A stretch of 64,000 nucleotides of DNA from Nitrosotalea sp. GTDB taxonomy: Bacteria > Methylomirabilota > Methylomirabilia > Rokubacteriales > CSP1-6. The stretch covers positions 1,292 to 65,291 of the forward strand of contig DATIWG010000074.1 of the NCBI GenBank assembly GCA_035519555.1. The letters are read 5' to 3'. Positions 2,311 to 51,531 of the stretch are shown in pieces. Made by a program: the position numbers and the translations under genes. Within the stretch, counting starts at the first letter, position 1. Each line of letters opens with the position of its first letter. The notes below the pieces were generated by a model. That model was given only the letters and a program-made list of their open reading frames with translations. It had not been told where the DNA came from and did no database searches.

Positions 2311-3183
2311 GTGAGGCTACCCCGCGACCGCTTCGACTACTCGCCATTCCCCGCCCGCAAGCCGTGGAAGCTCCCCAAGGGCGCCCGCATCGCGGTGTGG
2401 ACCATCGTCAACATCGAGGAGTGGGACATCGAGAAGGCGATGGCGCGTCAGTACCTCACCGCGCCTCAGGGCGTGGCCACCGTGCCGGACGTGCCCAACT
2501 GGGCCTGGCACGACTACGGCATGCGCGTGGGGTTCTGGCGTCTGCTGGACGCGCTCGCAAAGCGGAAGATCCGCGCCACCACCTCCATCAACGCCCACGT
2601 GGTCGAGTCGTACGAGCCGGTCGCCCGTGCCATGCTGGACGCGGGATGGGAGTTCATGGCCCACGGGGTCATCCAGGGGGCGATGCATCTCCTGCCCGAT
2701 CAGCGCGCGGCCATCCGCGAGTCGGTCGCGCTGCTGCACAAGTTCACCGGCAAGAAGCCGAGGGGCTGGCTCGGCCCCGGGCTCACCGAGACGTGGGAAA
2801 CGCTCGACTACCTCGCCGCCGAGGGCATCGAGTACGTCTCCGACTGGGTCAACGACGATCAGCCCTACGAGATCCGCACCACCTCGGGGCCGCTCGTGTC
2901 CGTGCCCTACACGCTCGAGCTGAACGACATCCCGATGATGGTGATCCAGCACCACACCTCCGGCGACTGGCTGCAGCGGGCGAAGGACCAGTTCGACCGG
3001 CTCTACGCCGAGGGCGCGAAGAACCCGCGGGTGATGGCGCTGGCCGTCCACCCGTACATCTCGGGCGTCCCGCATCGCATCAAGTACTTCGAGGCGGTCT
3101 ACGACTACATGCGCAAGAAGCCCGGGGTGTGGATGACCACCGGTGAGGAGATCTACGAGTGGTACAGGCAATCGCACCGGTGA
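2311..3183 (+). CDS. polysaccharide deacetylase family protein (PuuE/allantoinase-like)
   Basis: C-terminal 290 aa of track ORF 670..3183. GTG 2311 follows GGAGG (2301-2305). Recognisable blocks: RIAVWTIVNIEEWD, WEFMAHGV, ALAVHPYISGVPHRIKYFE. The upstream part of that track ORF is Arg-rich antisense of the beta-helix gene. Confidence 0.75.
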   Translation: MRLPRDRFDYSPFPARKPWKLPKGARIAVWTIVNIEEWDIEKAMARQYLTAPQGVATVPDVPNWAWHDYGMRVGFWRLLDALAKRKIRATTSINAHVVESYEPVARAMLDAGWEFMAHGVIQGAMHLLPDQRAAIRESVALLHKFTGKKPRGWLGPGLTETWETLDYLAAEGIEYVSDWVNDDQPYEIRTTSGPLVSVPYTLELNDIPMMVIQHHTSGDWLQRAKDQFDRLYAEGAKNPRVMALAVHPYISGVPHRIKYFEAVYDYMRKKPGVWMTTGEEIYEWYRQSHR

Positions 3184-3190
3184 TACCGTC

Positions 3191-4381
3191 ATGAATCGCT
3201 GGGTGATGCTGCTGGTGATCTTCTTCACGCGGACCTCGCTCGGCTTTCAGTTCCAGTCCATCGCCGCCCTCACCCCGTTCCTCGTCACCGTCTTCGACCT
3301 GTCCTATGCGCAGGTGGGGCTGCTGATGGGGCTCTTCATGCTGCCCGGCGTGGTCTTCGCCTTGCCCGGCGGCCTGCTCGGGCAGCGCTTCGGAAGCCTC
3401 CGCGTGGTGGTGGCCGGGCTCGGGCTCATGGTCGTGGGCGGCATCATCGTGTCGTACAGCCACGGCTTCAACGCGGCCGCCCTCGGCCGGACCCTCTCGG
3501 GAACGGGCGGCGTGCTGGTGAACATCATGCTCGCCCGCATGGTGGCCGACTGGTTCCGCGGGCGCGAGCTGCAGACTGCGATGGGCATCATGCTCGCGGC
3601 GTGGCCGTTCGGGATGGCCCTGGCCCTGATGATCCTGGGCTCCTTCGCCGCCGCCTCGTCGTGGCGGCTGGCCGAGTACGCCACCGTGGTGGCGGGCGGC
3701 CTCGCGCTCGGCCTGATCGGGCTGATGTACCAGGACCCGCCCAATGCGGCCGCGGCCGAGCGCACCGCGCTCCGGCTCAACGTGCCGCGTCGGGTGTGGG
3801 CGCTCGCGGTCAGCGCCGGCATCAGCTGGGCCGTGCTCAACGCCAGCGTGATCGTGGTAGCGAGCTTCGCGCCCTCGTTCCTGATGTCCCGCGGCTCGTC
3901 GGTCACCGAGGCGGGCCTGATCACCGGCGCCGCGCTCTGGATCAGCATCGTGGCGGTGCCGCTCGGCGGCCTCGTGGCGGACCGCGTCAACCGGCCGCAG
4001 CTCCTGATCGCCGTCAGCTGCCTGCTCTCCGCCATCACCATCGCGTGCATCGCGCGTGCGCCCATGCCCGCGCTGTGGATGGTGCTGAGCGGCATCCTGC
4101 TCGGCCTGCCGCCCAGCATCCTGATGTCGCTGCTGCCGCGCGCGGTCCTCGCCGAGCACCTGGCCACCGCGCTCGGCGTGTACTACGCGCTGTTCTACCT
4201 CGGCATGGCCGTCTCGCAGACCATGGCCGGGCTGCTGCGGGACCTCACCGGCGACCCGGGAATGCCCTTACTCTTTGCCGCCCTCTTGATGGCGGCCACC
4301 GTGCCCGCCGTCTTCGCCTTCTGGCGCATCGAGGCCGGTCGCGTACCCGAGCCGGAGATGGTCACCGCCGACCGGCCATGA
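3191..4381 (+). CDS. MFS transporter
   Basis: Track ORF 3143..4381. Multi-TM hydrophobic profile with an MFS-type loop (LPGGLLGQRFGSLR). Start moved to ATG 3191 (MNRWVMLLVIFF), 8 nt after the upstream stop. Confidence 0.8.
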   Translation: MNRWVMLLVIFFTRTSLGFQFQSIAALTPFLVTVFDLSYAQVGLLMGLFMLPGVVFALPGGLLGQRFGSLRVVVAGLGLMVVGGIIVSYSHGFNAAALGRTLSGTGGVLVNIMLARMVADWFRGRELQTAMGIMLAAWPFGMALALMILGSFAAASSWRLAEYATVVAGGLALGLIGLMYQDPPNAAAAERTALRLNVPRRVWALAVSAGISWAVLNASVIVVASFAPSFLMSRGSSVTEAGLITGAALWISIVAVPLGGLVADRVNRPQLLIAVSCLLSAITIACIARAPMPALWMVLSGILLGLPPSILMSLLPRAVLAEHLATALGVYYALFYLGMAVSQTMAGLLRDLTGDPGMPLLFAALLMAATVPAVFAFWRIEAGRVPEPEMVTADRP

Positions 4382-4403: not shown

Positions 4404-5846
4404 ATGCGCGAGGCGGGCGACATCCTCCTAGTGGCCTGCTACGAGCTCGGCCATCAGCCCCTGGCGGTGGCATGGCCGGCGGCGTTCCTCGAGCGCGCCG
4501 GCTACCGACCCGCGCTGATGGATGTCTCGGTGGAGCCAGTGGACGACGAGAAGCTCGCCCGCGCCAGGGTCGTCGCCGTCTCGGTGCCGATGCACACCGC
4601 GCTGCGCCTGGGGCTCGAGGTCGCCGCGCGGGCCCGCGCCGTGAATCCCGCCGCCCACGTGTGCTTCTTCGGGCTCTACGCCACGCTCAACTCCGAGTTC
4701 CTCTTCGCGCACGGCGTCGATAGCGTGATCGGTGGCGAGGCGGAGACTCCCCTGTGCTCGCTCATCGACGCGCTCGAGCGGGGCGACGCCGGGTCACTGC
4801 CCGCGGTGGCGCGCCCGGGCCGGCCGGCCGCGCCGTACCTCGAGCGGCTCGACTTCCCGATGCCGAGCCGCTCGGCGCTGCCCTCCATCAAGAAGTACGC
4901 GCACCTCGAGCGCGACGGGCGCATGGAGCTGGTGGCCTATGCGGAGGCCAGCCGCGGCTGCCTGCATCGGTGCCGGCACTGCCCGATCCCGCCGGTCTAC
5001 GGCGGCCGCTTCTTCGCGGTGCCGCGGGAGATCGTGCTGGCCGACGTGCGCCAGCAGATCGAGGCGGGCGCGCGCCACGTCACCTTCGGAGACCCGGACT
5101 TCCTCAACGGGCCGACCCATGCGCTCGCAGTGGCGCGCGCCGTCCACGCCGAGTGGCCGGACGTCACCTTCGACTTCACCGCGAAGATCGAGCACCTGCT
5201 ACGCCATCGCGGCCACCTGCCCGCGCTGCAGGCGGCGGGCTGCCTCTTCATCGTCTCCGCGGCCGAGTCGCTGAGCGACGTCGTGCTCGGACACCTGGAG
5301 AAGGGCCACACGCGCGCCGACATCGCGACCGCGCTCGCGGTCACGCGGCAGGCCGGCATCGCGCTGCGGCCGACGTGGGTGGCCTTCACGCCGTGGACGA
5401 CGCTCGACGATCACCGCGCGTGGCTCGACTTCCTGGCGGTGGAGAACCTGATAGACGCAGTCGATCCGGTGCAGTACGGCCTGCGCCTGCTGGTGCCGCC
5501 GGGCTCGCGGCTGCTCGAGACCGCGGCGCTCGAGCCCCACCTGGGCCCGCTCGAGCGGGAGACGCTCTCCTACCGCTGGACCCATCCCGATCCGCGCATG
5601 GACGCGCTGCAGGTCGAGACGGCGCAGGTGGTGGCCCGGAGCGTGGAGGAAAAAGCCGACGCGCCCGCCATCTTCGACCGCGTGCGCGCGCTGGCCGCAG
5701 CCGCGGCGGGCGTCGCGGCCCCTTCGCCGGTGACCGCAGGCATGAGCAAGGGCCGCAAGCGACCGCCTCGGCTCACCGAGGCGTGGTTCTGCTGAGCGGA
5801 GCCCACCCGGGGCCAGTTGGCCCTGACCTCACCAACGCTTCTCTAG
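4404..5846 (+). CDS. B12-binding-like/radical SAM protein with C-terminal Cys-Sec 'CUAEP' tail (selenoprotein; TGA 5793-5795 read as Sec)
   Basis: Track ORF 4404..5795 ends ...RLTEAWFC + TGA. The next codons are GCG GAG CCC (AEP) and the frame stays open to TAG 5844-5846. The radical SAM CX3CX2C motif is present (SRGCLHRCRHCP). A hairpin lies 13 nt downstream of the TGA. Confidence 0.8.
5808..5825 (+). other. candidate SECIS hairpin for the radical SAM UGA
   Basis: CGGGGCC-AGUU-GGCCCUG: a 7-bp stem (one G-U pair) with an AGUU tetraloop, starting 13 nt 3' of UGA 5793-5795. Confidence 0.5.
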
Positions 5847-5865
5847 CTCAGCGGACGTGGGTCGT

Positions 5866-5909
5866 CCCGGCCACGTGGTGTCGGAAGGCACTCGGCCGGG
5901 CGTTTTCTC
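5866..5909 (+). terminator. weak candidate intrinsic terminator after the radical SAM gene
   Basis: CCCGGCC (5866-5872) pairs with GGCCGGG (5894-5900), followed by CGTTTTCTC. The 21-nt loop is large, so this is weak. Confidence 0.25.
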
Positions 5910-5969
5910 ATGCGGATCTCATGCGAGCCTCATGGTCTGGTTGTTTCATGGCCGGAGGAGGAAATTGCC

Positions 5970-6470
5970 ATGAGACAGAGGATCGCAGCAGGCATCGGCG
6001 CCGGGCTCGTCGCCGGCGTGATCTTCGCGGTGGTGATGCGCATCTTGCCGGTTGCGGCCCCGGACGGGCGCCAGCTCACCATGACCGCCTACGCGGCCCG
6101 GCTCATCCATGCCGTGAGCCCACGGGCCGGCTGGCTCGTCTACCTCGCCTACGCGGTCCTGCTAGGCGCGCTCTACGGCGCGGCCTTCTTCGCGGGCCGG
6201 ACCGGCGGGCTCCGGGCCGCCATCCTGGGCGGGGCGTGGGGACTCGGCTGGTTCGTGCTGACCGGGTTCGGGGTGGTCCCGGCGCTGCTCGGTGACCACC
6301 CGTTCTCCGCCGCCGCGCTCCAGGAGTTGACACGCATCGGGGTGCCGCTGCTGGTGGGCCACATCGTCTACGGCCTGGTGCTCGGGTCGGGCTTCAACCT
6401 GATCATGGGCGCCGTCACCAGACCTGGAAGCTCGGGTCACACGCAGCACGGTATACGGCGGGCCGCGTGA
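5970..6470 (+). CDS. hypothetical integral membrane protein
   Basis: Track ORF 5910..6470. Start moved to ATG 5970 behind GGAGGAG (5954-5960). Several Gly/Ala-rich hydrophobic helices. No family recognised. Confidence 0.6.
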   Translation: MRQRIAAGIGAGLVAGVIFAVVMRILPVAAPDGRQLTMTAYAARLIHAVSPRAGWLVYLAYAVLLGALYGAAFFAGRTGGLRAAILGGAWGLGWFVLTGFGVVPALLGDHPFSAAALQELTRIGVPLLVGHIVYGLVLGSGFNLIMGAVTRPGSSGHTQHGIRRAA

Positions 6471-6488
6471 GTCCGAGGAGGACAGATC

Positions 6489-6920
6489 ATGAGAACGAAC
6501 GCGAATCGGTGGGCTCTCGCTCTGGGCAGCGCGCTCCTGGTCGCTCCGGCAGCATGGGCGGCCGACATCGTCGAGCATTCGGGCAGCGTGACCGCGGTGG
6601 ACGCGGCGCGACACACCATCACGATCGAGGAGATGGGGTCGTGGCACCCCGGCAAGAGGAACGTCAAGCGCGAGGTCTTCGCGCTGACGCCCGAGACTCG
6701 GGTCGAGCTGGCGCGCCGTCAGGAGGTGCCCGGCGGCTACCCCGGTCAATGGACCGAACAGGCGTTGACGTCGTCGGCTCCGCGCGTCGGAGACTTCGCC
6801 ACGATCACCGCCCAGCGCGAGGGCGGACGGCTCCAGGCCACCGCGGTCGTGGTGGTGCGGCCGGACGGCTCGGGACAGCCGCCCGGCCCTCCCGAGGGGC
6901 GGGTGAAGAGCCGGATCTGA
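6489..6920 (+). CDS. hypothetical secreted protein
   Basis: Track ORF with a signal-peptide-like N-terminus (ALALGSALLVAPAAWAAD) and coding-like codon usage. No family recognised. Confidence 0.55.
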   Translation: MRTNANRWALALGSALLVAPAAWAADIVEHSGSVTAVDAARHTITIEEMGSWHPGKRNVKREVFALTPETRVELARRQEVPGGYPGQWTEQALTSSAPRVGDFATITAQREGGRLQATAVVVVRPDGSGQPPGPPEGRVKSRI

Positions 6921-6996
6921 CGCGCCGGGCGAGAGGGCCTCGAGTTCTCATCTGGCCCTCATGGTCCTCTCACGACCCGGTGGTACCGATGATTCC

Positions 6997-8217
6997 ATGA
7001 GCGGTCGACGCGCGCCCCTGGCTGCCCTCGCGCTCGTCGCGCTGGCCGGCACCGGTGTGGTGGCCGCCGCCGGAGTGGGCAGCGCGGATACCTACCAGGC
7101 CATGAGGCTCTATGCCGAGGCGATGTCCGCCATCCACGACGGCTACGTGGACGAGCTGGCGTGGACCAAGATGGTCCGGGATGGCATCCGCGGGGCTGTT
7201 CAGGGTCTCGACGGCGACAGCACGGTGCGCGAGCCGAGCCCATCCGCGGACCATGGGCACCACGCCATCCTGGAGGCGGGCGATGTCGGGCTTGCTTTGG
7301 CCCGTCGCGCCGGATTGCTCACCGTGGTCGCGGCGCCGGCCGGGCTGCCGGCTGCGGGCGCGGGAATCCGATCCGGCGATCGCATCCTGACCTTCGACGG
7401 TGAGGCCGTCGAGGCCGCGACGGCAGAGACGGCCGCACGGCGCCTCCGCGGCCTGCCCGGCAGCCAGGTCTCGCTGACCGTCATCCGGAGCGGCTGGGCC
7501 GAGGCCAAGCCCTTCACCCTCACCCGGGTCGACCCGCCACCCACCGCGCCGAGTCATCGGCTCCTGGACGGCGCGATCCTCTACGTGCGCATTCCCCGGG
7601 TGGACGACACGGCCGCGCGGACGCTCGGCCATGTGCTGACCGCGAGTCCGGCGGATCGGGCCACCGGGCTGGTGCTGGACCTCAGGGACACCGCGGGCGG
7701 GCAGATCGAGGCGGCGCGGGCAATCGCGTCGCTGTTCCTCGATCCGGGCTGCGTGATCACTCACATCGAGAGCCGCGGGTCCGGAACGCCACCGACGCTC
7801 ACGACCGTGAGCGCGCCGTCACGGTGGAACCGGCCCGTGGTGCTCCTGGTGAGCCGGGGCACCGCCTCGGCGGCCGAGGTCCTGGCGGGCGCGATGCAGG
7901 ACACGCGCCGGGCAGTCATCGTGGGCTCGCCGACGTTCGGCGACGCCTCGACCCAGTCCACCATCCCGCTCTCGGACGGCTCCACGCTCTCGCTGACGAC
8001 CGCCCGATATCTGACCCCGCGGCGTCATCCGATCACGGGCCACGGCATCGCGCCCGACGTCGCGCCGTCCGGGGGGCCGCGCGGCGCGACGGCCGGGACC
8101 GACCCCGAGCTGGAGCTGGCCTCCGAGATGGTAAAGGCGGCGAGCATTCTCGAGCACGGCGGCGTGGGTGCGGCCCCCGCCGAGGTCGCGCTCGGGCGCT
8201 GCGACGCTGCCGCCTGA
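6997..8217 (+). CDS. S41 family C-terminal processing peptidase with PDZ-like domain
   Basis: Track ORF 6961..8217, start moved to ATG 6997 (MSGRRAPLAALALVALAG). PDZ-like GIRSGDRILTFDGEAV. Nucleophile block VLLVSRGTASAAEVLAGAMQD. Confidence 0.7.
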   Translation: MSGRRAPLAALALVALAGTGVVAAAGVGSADTYQAMRLYAEAMSAIHDGYVDELAWTKMVRDGIRGAVQGLDGDSTVREPSPSADHGHHAILEAGDVGLALARRAGLLTVVAAPAGLPAAGAGIRSGDRILTFDGEAVEAATAETAARRLRGLPGSQVSLTVIRSGWAEAKPFTLTRVDPPPTAPSHRLLDGAILYVRIPRVDDTAARTLGHVLTASPADRATGLVLDLRDTAGGQIEAARAIASLFLDPGCVITHIESRGSGTPPTLTTVSAPSRWNRPVVLLVSRGTASAAEVLAGAMQDTRRAVIVGSPTFGDASTQSTIPLSDGSTLSLTTARYLTPRRHPITGHGIAPDVAPSGGPRGATAGTDPELELASEMVKAASILEHGGVGAAPAEVALGRCDAAA

Positions 8218-10800: not shown

Positions 10801-11235
10801 ATGCTCAATCCAGGAGACAAGGCGCCGGATTTCGCGGGCCGCGACCACACCGGCCAGACGGTGCGGCTGGCCGACTTCAAGGGCAAAACGGTCGTGCTCT
10901 GGTTCTACCCGAAGGCCGACACCCCGGGCTGAACCGCGGAGGGTTGCGGGTTCCGCGACCTGAAAGCCGAGTACGACCGGAAGAACGCGGTGATCCTCGG
11001 CGTGTCGTTCGACACCCCGGCCGAGAACAAGCACTTCGCCGAGAAGTTCTCCTTCAACTTCCCGCTGCTCTGTGACACCGACCGGACGATCGGCACCGCC
11101 TACGGCGCCAACGTGGACCCGCAGAAGGGGGCCCAGCGCGTGGGCGTGGTGATCGATGGGAGCGGCAAGATCAAGGAATGGCACGCCCGTGTGGACGCCC
11201 GCGCCTGGCCCGCCGAGGTGGTGAAGACGCTCTAG
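10801..11235 (+). CDS. PrxQ/BCP-type peroxiredoxin with selenocysteine at the peroxidatic position (TGA 10930-10932 read as Sec)
   Basis: My translation: MLNPGDKAPDFAGRDHTGQTVRLADFKGKTVVLWFYPKADTPG-U-TAEGCGFRD, continuing in frame into track ORF 10990..11235. E. coli BCP has FYPKAMTPGCTVQACGLRD at this site, so U aligns with the peroxidatic Cys and the +5 Cys is kept. Strong RBS. Confidence 0.85.
10936..10956 (+). other. candidate SECIS hairpin for the PrxQ UGA
   Basis: GCGGAG-GGUUGCGGG-UUCCGC: a 6-bp stem (one G-U pair) and a 9-nt loop, starting 4 nt after UGA. Confidence 0.45.
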
Positions 11236-11306: not shown

Positions 11307-12322
11307 ATGAAATGTGCTGTCGTCCTGATCGCGCTCCTCGCCGCTACGCTCGCGCCGCCTGCTCGCGCGCACGCTCAGCAGACCACGCTCGTTGTCACCG
11401 GCTACGGCGGCCGGTGGTCGGAGGTGATGAAGAAGGCCCTCGTCGAGCCCTTCGAGAAGAAGCACGGCGTGAAGGTCGAGGTGGTCACGGGCATCACCAC
11501 CGAGTGGGTGGCCAAGCTCCTGGCCGCCGGTCCCGACAACCCGCCCTACGACGTAGTCTTCGGCAACGAGCCGGCCTTCCCGATCCCGCGCGAGCGCGGG
11601 TTCTTCGACAAGCGCAATGAGACCCTGGCGCCCAACATCAGGAACCTCTATCCGAAGGCGCTCATCGGCGACACGAGCCTGGCCATGTTCTGGGGGCGCA
11701 TCGGCCTCGCCTACCGCACCGACCTGGGCCTCAAGAAGCCCACATCCTGGAAGGACTTCTGGGACGAGGCCTACGTGGGCAAGCGGGCCACCTACGTCAT
11801 CGGCAACACCCTCGGCATCAACTTCCTCTTCATCGTCTCGAAGATATTCGGCAAGGACTACTTCGACATCGACGCCGGGGTCGCGGCGATCAAGCGCGCC
11901 CAGCCCAAGCTGGTGGACTTCACCGGCACGGTGGAGAAGCAGCTCGAGCAGAAAGAGGTCGTGATGGCGGTGCTCCACGACGCCTCCACCTACGACCTGC
12001 AGAAGCGAGGCATCCCGGTGGACTGGGCCGCCCCCAGCGAGGGCCTGCCGATCCTCGACCAGATCGTCCAGGTCACGCGCGGCTCGAAGAACAAGGAGCT
12101 GGCGTGGAAGTTCATCGACGCCTACATCTCGCCCGAGGTCCAGCTGGCCTTCGCCACCGAGCTCTTCTGGAGCCCGACCAACAAGACGGTGAAGGTGCCC
12201 GCGGACGTGGCGAAGAAGATCATCAGCGGGCCGGCCGACGTGGACAAGCTCGTCCTCTTCGACTGGGCTGCCGTCGCCAAGCAGCGACCCCAGTGGACCG
12301 AAAAGTGGAACAAGGAGATGCG

Positions 12323-12326
<4 letters not shown>
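11307..12326 (+). CDS. ABC transporter substrate-binding protein (PotD/extracellular solute-binding family 1-like)
   Basis: Distal part of track ORF 11178..12326, from ATG 11307 (MKCAVVLIALLAATLAPPARAHA signal peptide). PotD-like layout (VVTGYGGRW..., GLPILDQIVQVTRGSKNKELAWKFIDYI-type block). Confidence 0.85.
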
Positions 12327-13395
<1,069 letters not shown>

Positions 13396-13399
<4 letters not shown>

Positions 13400-16779: not shown

Positions 16780-18317
16780 GACGGCGCATCGGCATCGACG
16801 TGGGCGGCACCAACACCGACGCCGTCCTGCTCGAGGCAGACGCGGTCGCCGCCGCGGTGAAGACGCCGACCACCCCGGATGTGACCACCGGGATCACCCG
16901 CGCTCTCGCCGCCCTCGTGGAGCAGGCACCCGGCGCGCGCGAGGCCAACGCCGTGATGATCGGCACCACCCACTTCACCAACGCGGTGGTGCAGCGGCGG
17001 GACCTCGGCCGGGTCGCGGCGGTGCGCATCGGTCTGCCCTCCGGCGCCTCGCTGCCGCCCTTCGTGGACTGGCCCGAGGACCTGGCCGCCCTGGTCCGCG
17101 CCGAGGTCGTGATGCTGGAAGGCGGCCACGAGTTCGACGGCCGGCCGCTCGTGCCCTTCGACACGCGCGGGATGCGCGCGGCGGCCCGGCGCATCCGCGA
17201 GGCGGGGATCCGCTCGGTGGCAGTGGCGGCGGTCTTCTCGCCGCTCAACGCAGCGTGTGAGGAAGAAGCGGCGGCGATTTTACGCGACGCCTGTCCCGAC
17301 GTCGCGGTCACCCTCTCCCACCGGCTCGGGCGCATCGGCTTGCTCGAGCGCGAGAACGCGGCGCTGCTCAACGCCTGCCTCATCGAGCTGGCCCGGAAGA
17401 CGACACGCGCGTTCACGGAAGCGCTACGGGGAAGCGGCATCGCGGCACCGCTCTACCTCACCCAGAACGACGGCACCGTCATGCTGGCCGAGGTGGCCGA
17501 GGCCTACCCGGTCTACAGCTTCGCGTCGGGGCCGACCAACTCCATGCGCGGCGCCGCGTTCCTGTCCAAGCGCGACGAGGCCCTCGTCGTCGACGTGGGC
17601 GGTACCACCACCGACATCGGCAGCCTGCGCCACGGCTTCCCTCGCGAGGCCAACAACGTGGTCGAGATCGGCGGGGTGCGTACGCTGTTCCGCATGCCCG
17701 ATCTCCTCTCGCTGGGCCTGGGCGGCGGGACCCTCGTCGAGCGGTCGCCCCTCACCATCGGGCCGGCCAGCGTGGGCTATCGCCTCACCGAGCAGGCGCT
17801 GGTGTTCGGTGGCGACGTCCTCACCGTGACCGACGTCGCGGTCGCCGCCGGCCTCATCGACCTGGGCGACCGCGTGCGCGTGGCCTCGCTTCCCGCCGCG
17901 CTGGTGAACGAGGCGCTCGCCCGCATCCGCGCCATGATCGAGGAGGGCGTCGACCGCATGAAGACGGACGCGGGCGAGGCGCCGCTGATCGCGGTGGGCG
18001 GCGGCTCGTTCCTGGTGCCCGCGCGCCTGGCCGGCGTCTCCGAGGTGCTGAACGTGCCGCACCAGGCAGTGGCCAACGCGGTGGGCGCCGCCATCGCCCA
18101 GGTGAGCGGCGAGGTGGACCAGATCTTCCAGGACCTCACCCGGGACGAGGCCATCGCCCGGGCCCGCCGGGCGGCCGAGGACAAGGCGGTGGCGGCCGGC
18201 GCCGACCGGGCGACGATCAACGTGGTGGAGGTAGAGGACCTGCCGTTGGCCTACCTGCCAGGCAACTCCCTGCGCACCCGGGTGCGTGTCGTGGGGGAGA
18301 TCGCCGCGCAGCCGTAG
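16776..18317 (+). CDS. hydantoinase/oxoprolinase family protein (HyuA-like, short form)
   Basis: Distal part of track ORF 16212..18317 from GTG 16776 (GTGA overlap). IGIDVGGTNTDAVL and VVDVGGTTTDIG ASKHA-type phosphate motifs. Confidence 0.85.
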   Translation: MRRRIGIDVGGTNTDAVLLEADAVAAAVKTPTTPDVTTGITRALAALVEQAPGAREANAVMIGTTHFTNAVVQRRDLGRVAAVRIGLPSGASLPPFVDWPEDLAALVRAEVVMLEGGHEFDGRPLVPFDTRGMRAAARRIREAGIRSVAVAAVFSPLNAACEEEAAAILRDACPDVAVTLSHRLGRIGLLERENAALLNACLIELARKTTRAFTEALRGSGIAAPLYLTQNDGTVMLAEVAEAYPVYSFASGPTNSMRGAAFLSKRDEALVVDVGGTTTDIGSLRHGFPREANNVVEIGGVRTLFRMPDLLSLGLGGGTLVERSPLTIGPASVGYRLTEQALVFGGDVLTVTDVAVAAGLIDLGDRVRVASLPAALVNEALARIRAMIEEGVDRMKTDAGEAPLIAVGGGSFLVPARLAGVSEVLNVPHQAVANAVGAAIAQVSGEVDQIFQDLTRDEAIARARRAAEDKAVAAGADRATINVVEVEDLPLAYLPGNSLRTRVRVVGEIAAQP

Positions 18318-18393
18318 CCCGGCGGCCAGTTGGCCCTGGAGCGTAAGTTCGGGTACAGTAAGGGTGTACGCGAGAGTCCCGCGGAGGAGCCTC

Positions 18394-18672
18394 ATGAGCG
18401 ATGAGTTGATGACCAAGGTGCAGGACCTGATCGAGAACATGATCAACCCGGCCGTGGCTGGCCACGGCGGATTCGTCCAGCTCGTGGACGTCAAGGACAA
18501 CAAGGTCTACTTGCAGATGGGCGGCGGGTGCCAGGGCTGCGGAGCCGCGGACGTCACGCTCAAGCAGGGCATCGAGCGGCTGATCAAGGAGGAGATTCCC
18601 GAGGTGGAGGAAGTGCTGGACACCACCGACCACGCCTCGGGCGAGAACCCGTACTACCAGCCGTCGAAGTAG
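18394..18672 (+). CDS. NifU-like (Nfu) Fe-S cluster carrier domain protein
   Basis: ATG 18394 follows GGAGGAG. INPAVAGHGGFVQLVDV...GGGCQGCGAADVTLKQGIERLIKEEIPEV is the Nfu CxxC domain. Confidence 0.85.
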   Translation: MSDELMTKVQDLIENMINPAVAGHGGFVQLVDVKDNKVYLQMGGGCQGCGAADVTLKQGIERLIKEEIPEVEEVLDTTDHASGENPYYQPSK

Positions 18673-50437: not shown

Positions 50438-50977
50438 ATGCGTCGAGCTGCCCCGCTGCTGGTCATGGCCCTGCTGCTGACCGGGCTGGTTCTGCCGGTC
50501 GCCGCCCTGGAAGTCGGCCAGAAGGCGCCCGACTTCACCCTGTCGGCCCCCGGCGGCAAGAAGGTCAATCTGTCGGACCTCACCGCCAAGGGACCCGTCG
50601 TCATCTTCACCTTCATCCAGGCCTTCACCGGCACCTGAACCAAGGAACTGCTCGGCTTCGAGGGGGCCCTGCCCCAGTTCGAGGCCGCCGGCGCCCAGGT
50701 CGTGGGCGTGAGTGCCGACCATGTCGCAACGCTGGAAGCCTGGGGCAAGCAGAACAAGATCAGCTACCTCCTGCTGTCCGATTTCGGCCGCACGATGCTT
50801 CCGGCCTACGACGCGATGGTCACCGACGAGAAGAGCCCGATCTTCCGGTACGCCAAGCGCGCGTACTACGTGATCGACAAGAACGGGGTGGTCCGCTGGG
50901 CCAAGATCCAGACGAACGCTCTCGACCTGCTCGACCCCGCCGACGTGCTCAAGGCGCTGAAGGACTCGGGCGTCTGA
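50438..50977 (+). CDS. exported AhpC/TSA-family peroxiredoxin with selenocysteine at the peroxidatic position (TGA 50636-50638 read as Sec); no Cys residues
   Basis: AAGGAG RBS then ATG 50438. MRRAAPLLVMALLLTGLVLPVAA signal peptide. ...VVIFTFIQAFTGT-U-TKELLGF... continues in frame into track ORF 50702..50977. U occupies the FTxxCTxE peroxidatic site. Confidence 0.85.
50645..50680 (+). other. candidate SECIS region for the exported Prx UGA
   Basis: GAACTG (50645-50650) pairs with CAGTTC (50675-50680). These enclose small GC stems CTCG-GCTT-CGAG (50651-50662) and GGGGC-CCT-GCCCC (50663-50675). The exact fold is ambiguous. Confidence 0.35.
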
Positions 50978-51531
50978 TGGTCGTCACGCGCGCCGCCGGT
51001 GGCCTGATCGCGGCGGCGCTCTGGGCCACGGCCGCGGCGGCGCAGCCCGCCGCCGCGCCGCCGGCCTGGGAGAAGATGGGCGTGCAGACGTACGAGCCGC
51101 CCAAGCCCGCGCCCGTCTTCGCCCTGCCCGCTCTCGACGGCCATACGGTGCGGCTCGAGGACTTCAAGGGCAAGGCGCTCGTCCTCTTCTTCTGGGCCAC
51201 GTGGTGACCGGACTGCCGGGAGGAGTTGCCTTCCGTCAACCGGTTGTACCAGGAGTTCAAGGGCCAGGGGCTCGAGGTCCTGCTGATCTCCTTCCGCGAG
51301 AGCGCCGACCTGGTGAAGCGCACCGCGGCCGAGCGCGGCTACACCGCGCCCGTGCTCCTCGACGCGTCCGGTGACGTCACGGGGCGAATCTACGGCGTGT
51401 GGGGGCCACCCACCGCCTACTTCGTGAACCGCGAAGGGCGTCTCGTCGGCCGGTTGATGGGGGCCAAGGACTGGAGCAGCCCCGCCGCGCGCGACCTGAT
51501 CCGCTCGCTCGTCGCCCCGGCGCCCCGCTGA
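50977..51531 (+). CDS. exported TlpA/ResA-like thioredoxin-fold protein with U-x-x-C active site (TGA 51205-51207 read as Sec)
   Basis: ATG 50977 overlaps the upstream TGA (TGATG). Signal-like GGLIAAALWATAAAAQP. ...ALVLFFWATW-U-PDCREELP... continues in frame into track ORF 51226..51531. It matches WxxWCxxC of TlpA/ResA, with U replacing the first Cys. Confidence 0.85.
51219..51234 (+). other. candidate SECIS hairpin for the TlpA-like UGA
   Basis: GGAGG-AGUUGC-CUUCC: a 5-bp stem (one G-U pair), 12 nt after UGA. An alternative CCGG-ACUG-CCGG lies at 51208-51219. Confidence 0.4.

Follow-up and report, generated by a model that had tools for sequence, protein, structure and literature searches.

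A CUAEP-tail radical SAM selenoprotein gene from a Rokubacteriales genome and its relation to ArsL

ArsL, an enzyme with a Rossmann-like N-terminal domain and a radical S-adenosylmethionine (SAM) core, makes the C–As bond of hydroxyarsinothricin. It splits the Cγ–S bond of SAM to give methylthioadenosine (MTA) and a radical or Fe–C species of 3-amino-3-carboxypropyl (ACP), and the organometallic Fe–C(ACP) species has been proposed to undergo attack by a nucleophile. The cysteines of its C-terminal RCCLKC motif bind As(III) and are needed for the C–As bond but not for SAM cleavage; the variant MCCA, which keeps the vicinal pair alone, has the highest activity on methylarsenical. Without an arsenic substrate, the ACP radical is quenched to 2-aminobutyrate. 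ArsL homologues and AprD4 have been reported not to bind cobalamin. A second family, the CUAEP/CCAEP-tail radical SAM proteins, was cited as uncharacterized by Haft and Gwadz (2022; bioRxiv 10.1101/2022.07.06.499078), according to whom dipeptides of cysteine and selenocysteine (CU) otherwise cluster in proteins of mercury, heavy-metal or organometallic chemistry. This preprint is the only work on CUAEP/CCAEP that our literature search turned up, and the family is not in a 2026 review of prokaryotic selenoproteomes, which describes the Methylomirabilota as very selenoprotein-rich and one metagenome-assembled genome (MAG) of this phylum as having 63 predicted selenoproteins. Here we examine a member of this second family, encoded in a stretch of 64,000 nucleotides (hereafter the window) assigned to Nitrosotalea sp. 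(GTDB lineage Bacteria; Methylomirabilota; Methylomirabilia; Rokubacteriales; CSP1-6; assembly GCA_035519555.1, contig DATIWG010000074.1, positions 1,292 to 65,291 of the forward strand), and compare it with ArsL.

The CUAEP/CCAEP family and its closest relatives

In translation, the open reading frame (ORF) at 4404–5795 ends in PPRLTEAWFC, followed by TGA at 5793–5795. Beyond this TGA lie 16 sense codons (GCG GAG CCC ACC CGG GGC CAG TTG GCC CTG ACC TCA CCA ACG CTT CTC), which are translated as AEPTRGQLALTSPTLL and reach TAG at 5844–5846. A first-pass annotation, made from the letters of the window alone, had described this open frame, an N-terminal region resembling a B12-binding domain together with the motif CLHRCRHC, and a RefSeq family name, with no function assigned to it. 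All of this was borne out. The 16 codons read exactly as described, Pfam matches both the B12-binding and the Radical_SAM (PF04055, 35.7 bits) domains, and NCBIfam model NF040546, 'CUAEP/CCAEP-tail radical SAM (seleno)protein', is matched with a score of 687 bits, its cutoff being 500 (E = 1.2e-206). This match spans profile positions 1–467 of 468, tail included, with U entered as C. The window protein has the same domain order as the model and the same CX3CX2C, its W-F-C-U-A-E-P tail fits the W-[FY]-C-[U/C]-A-E-P pattern, and both show the alternation of selenocysteine (Sec) and cysteine (Cys). In family alignments, there is a single invariant Cys beyond CX3CX2C. Close homologues from Methylomirabilota already bear the NF040546 name at NCBI. 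Since the family is matched so clearly and was cited by Haft and Gwadz, the gene is a member of a catalogued selenoprotein family, and its discovery is already known. What is new here is a testable ArsL-type hypothesis and a conserved partnership with ligase and NfuA-like genes, neither of which we found described in the literature searched. The family is large: a pattern scan picked up 441 relatives among GTDB species representatives, and 509 representatives at E < 1e-30 were found among 50%-identity clusters.

The second-best NCBIfam match of the window protein is the RCCLKC-tail family of ArsL itself (NF040542; 313.8 bits, E = 2e-93, positions 1–409 of 423), and the third family reaches 50 bits only. 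ArsL-like RCC[IL]KC proteins were also the next relatives in a search of 1.8 billion proteins, and MAFFT aligned the CC of ArsL onto the C[CU] of the CUAEP family. These comparisons place the CUAEP/CCAEP family as the sister of ArsL, which is its closest characterized family by a wide margin. Common to both are the Rossmann-like N-domain, the radical SAM core, a Cys-rich C-terminal tail in which the vicinal pair is aligned with C-U, and a small-molecule transporter gene alongside (ArsQ in ArsL clusters, a major facilitator superfamily (MFS) gene in the window). However, the window protein departs from ArsL: its score is under the ArsL cutoff of 450, it has no RCCLKC motif, and its gene does not lie together with arsM and a permease gene in an ars operon. 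ArsL ends in its RCCLKC motif with three cysteines, whereas the tail of the window family is CUAEP followed by 10–40 residues, with two chalcogen ligands, and the linker before it is ~35 residues longer. Sec is predicted in the window protein, and whereas ArsL lies in ars operons, the window gene has no ars operon, ArsM or ArsR nearby.

A sequence search of the PDB gave marginal matches only, to AprD4 (E ~1e-6) and MgmA, so no ArsL-like structure is present there. An AlphaFold2 model was made of P0126, a Cys form 49% identical to the window protein (predicted local distance difference test (pLDDT) 95, predicted template modelling score (pTM) 0.93). Its best fold match is AprD4 (6fd2, TM 0.66), followed by the cobalamin-dependent (class B) radical SAM enzymes TsrM and OxsB. 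These proteins share the two-domain architecture of the family, and the Pfam B12-binding domain is above threshold in the window protein, but sequence similarity to them is marginal and none has a Cys-Sec tail.

Selenocysteine at the in-frame UGA

Three sets of sequences were compared: 80 loci in genomes that represent GTDB species, almost all of them Rokubacteria/Methylomirabilota; 88 more diverse metagenome or contig loci; and representatives from the 1.8-billion-protein search. In the first set, the tail motif was readable at 75 sites in 74 of the 80 loci; TGA stood after WFC at every site, and the sequence in frame behind it was [AS]EP[T]xGQ[LVF]. The aligned codon in the 88 diverse loci was TGA in 46, TGC in 30 and TGT in 12 (42 Cys codons in total), with AEPTxxQ downstream of the three codon classes alike. 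Representatives in the third set end either at W[FY]C or in W[FY]CCAEPTxxQ plus 10–40 residues. A single tail consensus, [LM][ST]ExW[FY]C[CU][AS]EPTxxQ[LF], is thus common to Sec and Cys forms, and the variable columns 3' of the UGA are precisely the third positions of GCN GAR CCN ACN. Because of the TGA/TGC/TGT alternation, the conserved AEPTxxQ, variation confined to wobble positions, a covarying hairpin specific to Sec forms and a family model that runs through the tail, UGA 5793–5795 is read here as a Sec codon, which yields a predicted vicinal Cys463–Sec464 pair in a conserved arm.

In bacteria, a selenocysteine insertion sequence (SECIS) element is a stem-loop that follows the UGA at a short distance and has G/U in its apical loop. 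The hairpin of the window (Table 1), when taken alone, is mildly better than chance (a 66-nt segment has a minimum free energy (MFE) of -27.4 kcal/mol, z = -2.1, and 6 of 200 shuffles fold equally well), but the comparative data are far beyond chance. Of 119 distinct Sec-form sequences, 113 have a hairpin that starts 12–13 nt after the UGA and combines an AGUU-type loop with a stem of 6 bp or more, whereas any hairpin of at least 6 bp is found in only 6 of 41 Cys forms; the MFE averages -14.4 kcal/mol in Sec forms and -7.4 kcal/mol in Cys forms. Pairs were formally counted in the 35 distinct sequences with a 5-nt loop, a restriction made because a joint MAFFT alignment misregistered the 4-nt and 5-nt loop classes. 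Within these, 5 of the 7 stem pairs show compensatory changes and 89% of cells pair. Cells with a double change number 53, against 16.7 ± 4.5 after shuffling, with none of 500 shuffles reaching 53, and this signal collapses in slid registers. The AGUU loop falls on the codons of the conserved Gln-Leu/Phe pair (CAG-UUG in the window). In Sec forms, these codons are CAG in 117 of 119 and then [UG]UN in all 119, while Cys forms have CAA in 10 and CUN in 14 of 41. At gathering thresholds, Rfam gave no match in the whole window; to our knowledge, Rfam has no general bacterial SECIS model. By its comparative behaviour, the putative element at 5808–5825 acts as a bacterial SECIS element.

These comparisons uphold what the first-pass annotation had proposed for the 3' end of the gene, namely a Sec codon giving a 'CUAEP' tail and a 7-bp AGUU hairpin at the position of a SECIS element. 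In the tail alignments the Cys of the CCAEP orthologues falls on Sec, the Cys-form homologues carry tails and so are not uniformly tailless at WFC, and the AEP codons downstream of TGA are kept in relatives with wobble changes only. As a side observation, the Ala codon that follows the UGA (5796–5798 in the window) is GCG in 97 of 119 Sec forms vs 9 of 41 Cys forms, a preference that may reflect either the context in which Sec is decoded or simply GC content.

Were the UGA a true stop, the product would have 463 residues ending in WFC, and the hairpin would act in transcription or in mRNA stability. In public gene calls, the close homologues do all stop at 463 aa; among the 120 closest clusters listed from ENA/JGI calls, one of which (P0001) is 100% identical to the window protein, most are of 463 aa and every C-terminus that was read ends in WFC. 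Within the 64-kb window, ARAGORN found no tRNA, and there is no sel gene or tRNA-Sec. This explanation must nonetheless account for amino acids that stay conserved in frame past the UGA with wobble-only variation, for TGC or TGT at the aligned codon in nearly half of the diverse loci with the same AEPTxxQ after it, and for a curated model that covers the tail. The hairpin itself has no U-tract, its loop is made of conserved codons, and no terminator is predicted there. A genuine stop is therefore effectively excluded by the comparative data, and we regard it as very improbable. It would follow that the gene callers of ENA and JGI cut essentially every Sec-form member at WFC and lose a residue that is probably catalytic.

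A possible role for the Cys-Sec arm

In the P0126 model, pLDDT is ~88–90 in the tail motif, 69 in the linker before it and 63 at the extreme C-terminus. Since the motif exceeds both of its flanks, the model suggests a docked arm and not a floppy one. Clues to the reaction come from the genes that recur next to the family. In other Rokubacteria, two genes follow the radical SAM gene in ~41–49 of 65 loci: one encodes an NfuA-like protein of 95 aa, the other an ATP-grasp protein of 413 aa (PF13535 + PF18603), and the latter protein carries LAL_C2, the C-terminal domain of L-amino-acid ligases (LAL). A divergent gene for a CDGSH Fe-S protein lies upstream of the radical SAM gene in 22 Rokubacterial loci. 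Partners of the LAL and NfuA type recur with Cys forms of 35–39% identity, in differing gene orders; for instance, one such locus (L085) has NifU on the minus strand followed by LAL and the radical SAM gene on the plus strand. Among the diverse metagenome loci, LAL is found in 43, NfuA-like genes in 39, YggX in 13, DUF169 in 10 and formyltransferase-like genes in 6; where at least 2.5 kb is available on both sides (30 loci), 17 have LAL, and several contigs with distant Cys forms are too short for their neighbourhood to be read. In locus L081, LAL precedes the radical SAM gene and a gene of the MbnB/TglH/ChrH family (DUF692) lies at 5857–6696. A divergent Cys form in L086 and L087 (9457–16367 in L086) is accompanied by PhyH, three GNATs, a KASIII-like protein, an amidohydrolase, an adenylating enzyme and a flavoenzyme. 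The neighbourhoods in L081 and L086/L087 hint at natural-product biosynthesis. The L086/L087 cluster also holds a small carrier-like ORF.

From these observations a mechanism can be proposed. The hairpin 12 nt past the UGA would recruit SelB with Sec-tRNA, Sec would be placed beside Cys463, and translation would continue to the TAG at 5844. The [4Fe-4S] cluster would then cleave SAM as in ArsL to release the ACP fragment. With the C-terminal arm docked at the active site, ACP would be joined to a soft heteroatom or metalloid X gripped by the vicinal Cys-Sec (or Cys-Cys) pair, giving an amino acid of the L-2-amino-4-X-butanoate type. In most lineages, the neighbouring ATP-grasp enzyme of the L-amino-acid-ligase type may ligate this product to another amino acid; its probable exporter in the clade of the window would be the MFS transporter encoded next door. 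Supply or repair of the Fe-S cluster could fall to the NfuA-like, YggX and CDGSH neighbours.

Tentatively, and with somewhat less than even confidence, we infer that the CUAEP protein transfers aminocarboxypropyl groups in the manner of ArsL and that the atom which receives the group is bound by its Cys-Sec arm. This reading is drawn from the sisterhood with ArsL, from the equivalence of the tails in position and alignment, from the sufficiency of the vicinal pair in ArsL, from the link of CU dipeptides to heavy-metal chemistry and from the L-amino-acid-ligase partner. Several points weigh against it. The CUAEP tail offers two chalcogen ligands against three in ArsL; the alignment to the ArsL hidden Markov model ends before the tail, so that tail homology is a matter of position and of the MAFFT alignment; and ACP-type cleavage of SAM is assumed from homology at 25–35% identity, while we know of no sequence determinant of the regiochemistry of such cleavage. 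No ATP-grasp gene of the LAL type is present in the 64-kb window, neither the window nor any neighbourhood examined showed ars, mer or other genes for dealing with metals or metalloids, and the genes that would assist with Fe-S clusters may be there for housekeeping.

Alternatively, the pair may serve as a redox or H-atom-donor arm that cycles between selenol/thiol and selenenylsulfide and so provides electrons or an H atom that quench a substrate or product radical or resolve a covalent intermediate, much as in the GCUG tail of mammalian thioredoxin reductase (TrxR) or as radical SAM epimerases do with their H-donor cysteines; if SAM is cleaved as in ArsL, the product could then be L-2-aminobutyrate. 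A vicinal Cys-Sec pair can form a selenenylsulfide, as it does in TrxR, interchange of Sec and Cys at one site is typical of redox selenoproteins, and both of the other predicted selenoproteins of the window (described below) are redox enzymes. ArsL yields 2-aminobutyrate in the absence of arsenic, so an H-donor arm would give the ATP-grasp ligase a defined amino acid to work on, and the lack of metal or metalloid genes nearby fits a metal-free reaction. The first-pass annotation had inferred a mobile redox arm from the likeness to TrxR. As a redox role, this idea stands as a serious rival, though an unlikely one; as a mobile TrxR-like arm it is an analogy, against which the position and predicted order of the motif speak. 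Both proteins have Cys-Sec near the C-terminus, where a selenenylsulfide is possible, but Sec is penultimate in TrxR, whereas 16 residues follow it in the window protein (10–40 across the family) and its flanks are long, conserved and predicted to be ordered, with a strongly conserved motif of ~17 residues in place of the floppy terminal GCUG. The window protein also has no FAD or NADPH domains and an unrelated fold; the likeness lies in the chemistry and not in common descent. The neighbourhoods contain no partner gene for a thioredoxin or a reductase, and in ArsL the homologous tail serves to bind the substrate, not to shuttle redox equivalents. An improbable variant, built purely on analogy, is that SAM transiently alkylates the Cys-Sec pair with a methyl or ACP group, which is passed on as in the methyl-cysteine of RlmN/Cfr, or that the pair provides an extra ligand, be it for the unique iron or for some transient Fe-S species. 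A selenolate is a far better nucleophile than a thiolate, the Fe–C(ACP) species of ArsL is a proposed target for a nucleophile, and the NfuA-like, YggX and CDGSH neighbours hint at turnover of, or damage to, an Fe-S cluster. There is, however, no sign of a second substrate or acceptor, and the one invariant Cys outside CX3CX2C is too few for an auxiliary cluster.

If ArsL-like transfer of ACP is nevertheless taken as the working hypothesis, a broader and more doubtful proposal can be made: the CUAEP/CCAEP family may be a second, far wider branch of ArsL-type noncanonical radical SAM chemistry, in which ACP is placed onto As, Sb, Se, Te or S species gripped by the Cys-Sec arm to give a so far unknown organo-element amino acid, which the ligase then builds into a dipeptide antimetabolite or an MFS pump exports. 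Should this be true, soil Methylomirabilota would make a new class of natural products that mimic glutamate or methionine by means of a selenium-dependent enzyme. The sisterhood with ArsL and the L-amino-acid-ligase and NfuA-like partners could lead to new carbon–heteroatom chemistry as well as to a new class of natural products.

Gene neighbourhood and other selenoprotein genes of the window

Table 1. Features of the CUAEP-tail radical SAM gene and of the genes directly upstream of it. Positions are those of the window.
Feature	Position	Strand	Evidence or remark
PuuE-like polysaccharide-deacetylase-family gene	2311..3183	+	First of the co-oriented block; PF01522 41 bits; frame analysis by GC content at third codon positions (GC3)
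MFS transporter gene	3143..4381	+	MFS_1 124 bits; stop 22 nt upstream of the radical SAM start
CUAEP-tail radical SAM selenoprotein coding sequence	4404..5846	+	480 codons, Sec predicted at codon 464; NF040546 profile match
Start codon ATG	4404	+	
Rossmann-like 'B12-binding' domain	4428..4763	+	Residues 9–120; PF02310, 40.1 bits vs cutoff 32.1
CX3CX2C (CLHRCRHC)	4959..4982	+	Residues 186–193 (Cys186/190/193); [4Fe-4S] ligation predicted; columns invariant in family alignments
Tail motif L-T-E-A-W-F-C-U-A-E-P-T-R-G-Q-L	5772..5819	+	Kept in Sec and Cys forms of many lineages
UGA, predicted Sec codon	5793..5795	+	Residue 464
Putative SECIS hairpin CGGGGCC-AGUU-GGCCCUG	5808..5825	+	7-bp stem; starts 12 nt after UGA; Sec-specific, covarying
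Actual stop TAG	5844..5846	+	

The clade of the window differs from the rest of the family in its neighbourhood. Here the radical SAM gene lies behind the PuuE-like deacetylase and MFS genes, while in most other lineages it lies beside the ATP-grasp ligase and the NfuA-like gene. The MFS gene is probably in the same operon as the radical SAM gene. The deacetylase-family gene scores 135 bits against the PuuE model TIGR03212, below its cutoff of 425, and a large beta-helix/Ig gene lies divergently upstream of the block. A possible operon of deacetylase, MFS and radical SAM genes had been pointed out at first pass; in the window the three are indeed co-oriented and tightly spaced, but the arrangement is confined to a close clade (loci L001–L015) of at least 82% identity, and the trio was rejected as a family-wide feature. 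By tblastn, 16 of the 80 genome loci contain the MFS gene, 15 of these being close-clade loci, and 12 contain the deacetylase gene; independent gene calls put MFS immediately 5' of the radical SAM gene in 9 loci. One public call (P0093, 599 aa) fuses part of the MFS protein to the radical SAM protein, so the two genes are adjacent there too; this fusion is probably an assembly or frameshift artefact. The window does hold a gene for an NfuA-like Fe-S carrier (18286–18672, plus strand), 12.6 kb downstream of the radical SAM gene, whose product is 79% identical to the NfuA-like protein encoded next to the radical SAM gene in other Rokubacteria. One MAG (DASYUM01, SMAG_U4595) has two paralogous Sec-form copies, L016 and L035, whose identities with the protein of the window are 69% and 66%. 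The CUAEP family may therefore be multi-copy, and its MFS-linked and ligase-linked genes are possibly paralogues and not orthologues.

Downstream of the radical SAM gene, an S41 peptidase gene (6961–8217) and ORFs 5910–6470 and 6489–6920 were considered as partners and rejected, as no related locus has a counterpart of them adjacent to the radical SAM gene. Both ORFs, on the plus strand, look coding (GC3 0.84–0.85), match nothing in Pfam or NCBIfam and are absent from the syntenic loci of the close clade; together with the peptidase gene, they look like an insertion particular to this genome. Within the same clade, L008 has ~105 nt of the 3' end of the radical SAM gene (tail codons, UGA and SECIS) doubled, at 3230–3340 and 4490–4600. 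In L008 an ABC-ATPase gene comes next to the radical SAM gene on its downstream side, and the second copy lies immediately behind it (the equivalent ABC ATPase of the window is at 12104–13399); the duplication looks like the footprint of a rearrangement that inserted the ABC gene.

Two other genes of the window appear to use UGA for Sec. In the case of a PrxQ/BCP-type peroxiredoxin (10801–11235, plus strand), which the ORF finder gave merely as an 81-aa fragment, TGA 10930–10932 falls at the peroxidatic Cys (FYPKADTPG-U-TAEGC). A hairpin with a GUU loop lies ~11 nt past this UGA, and the gene is conserved across it at 88–91% identity in related loci. The other is a candidate gene for a secreted thiol-disulfide oxidoreductase resembling ResA/TlpA (50977–51531, plus strand), with TGA 51205–51207 in W-U-P-D-C (UxxC). 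Its hairpin, GGGAGG-AGUUG-CCUUCC, has the AGUU loop signature and the ~12-nt spacing of the hairpin in the radical SAM gene. The use of Sec by this organism is independently supported by these two further predicted UGA-Sec genes.

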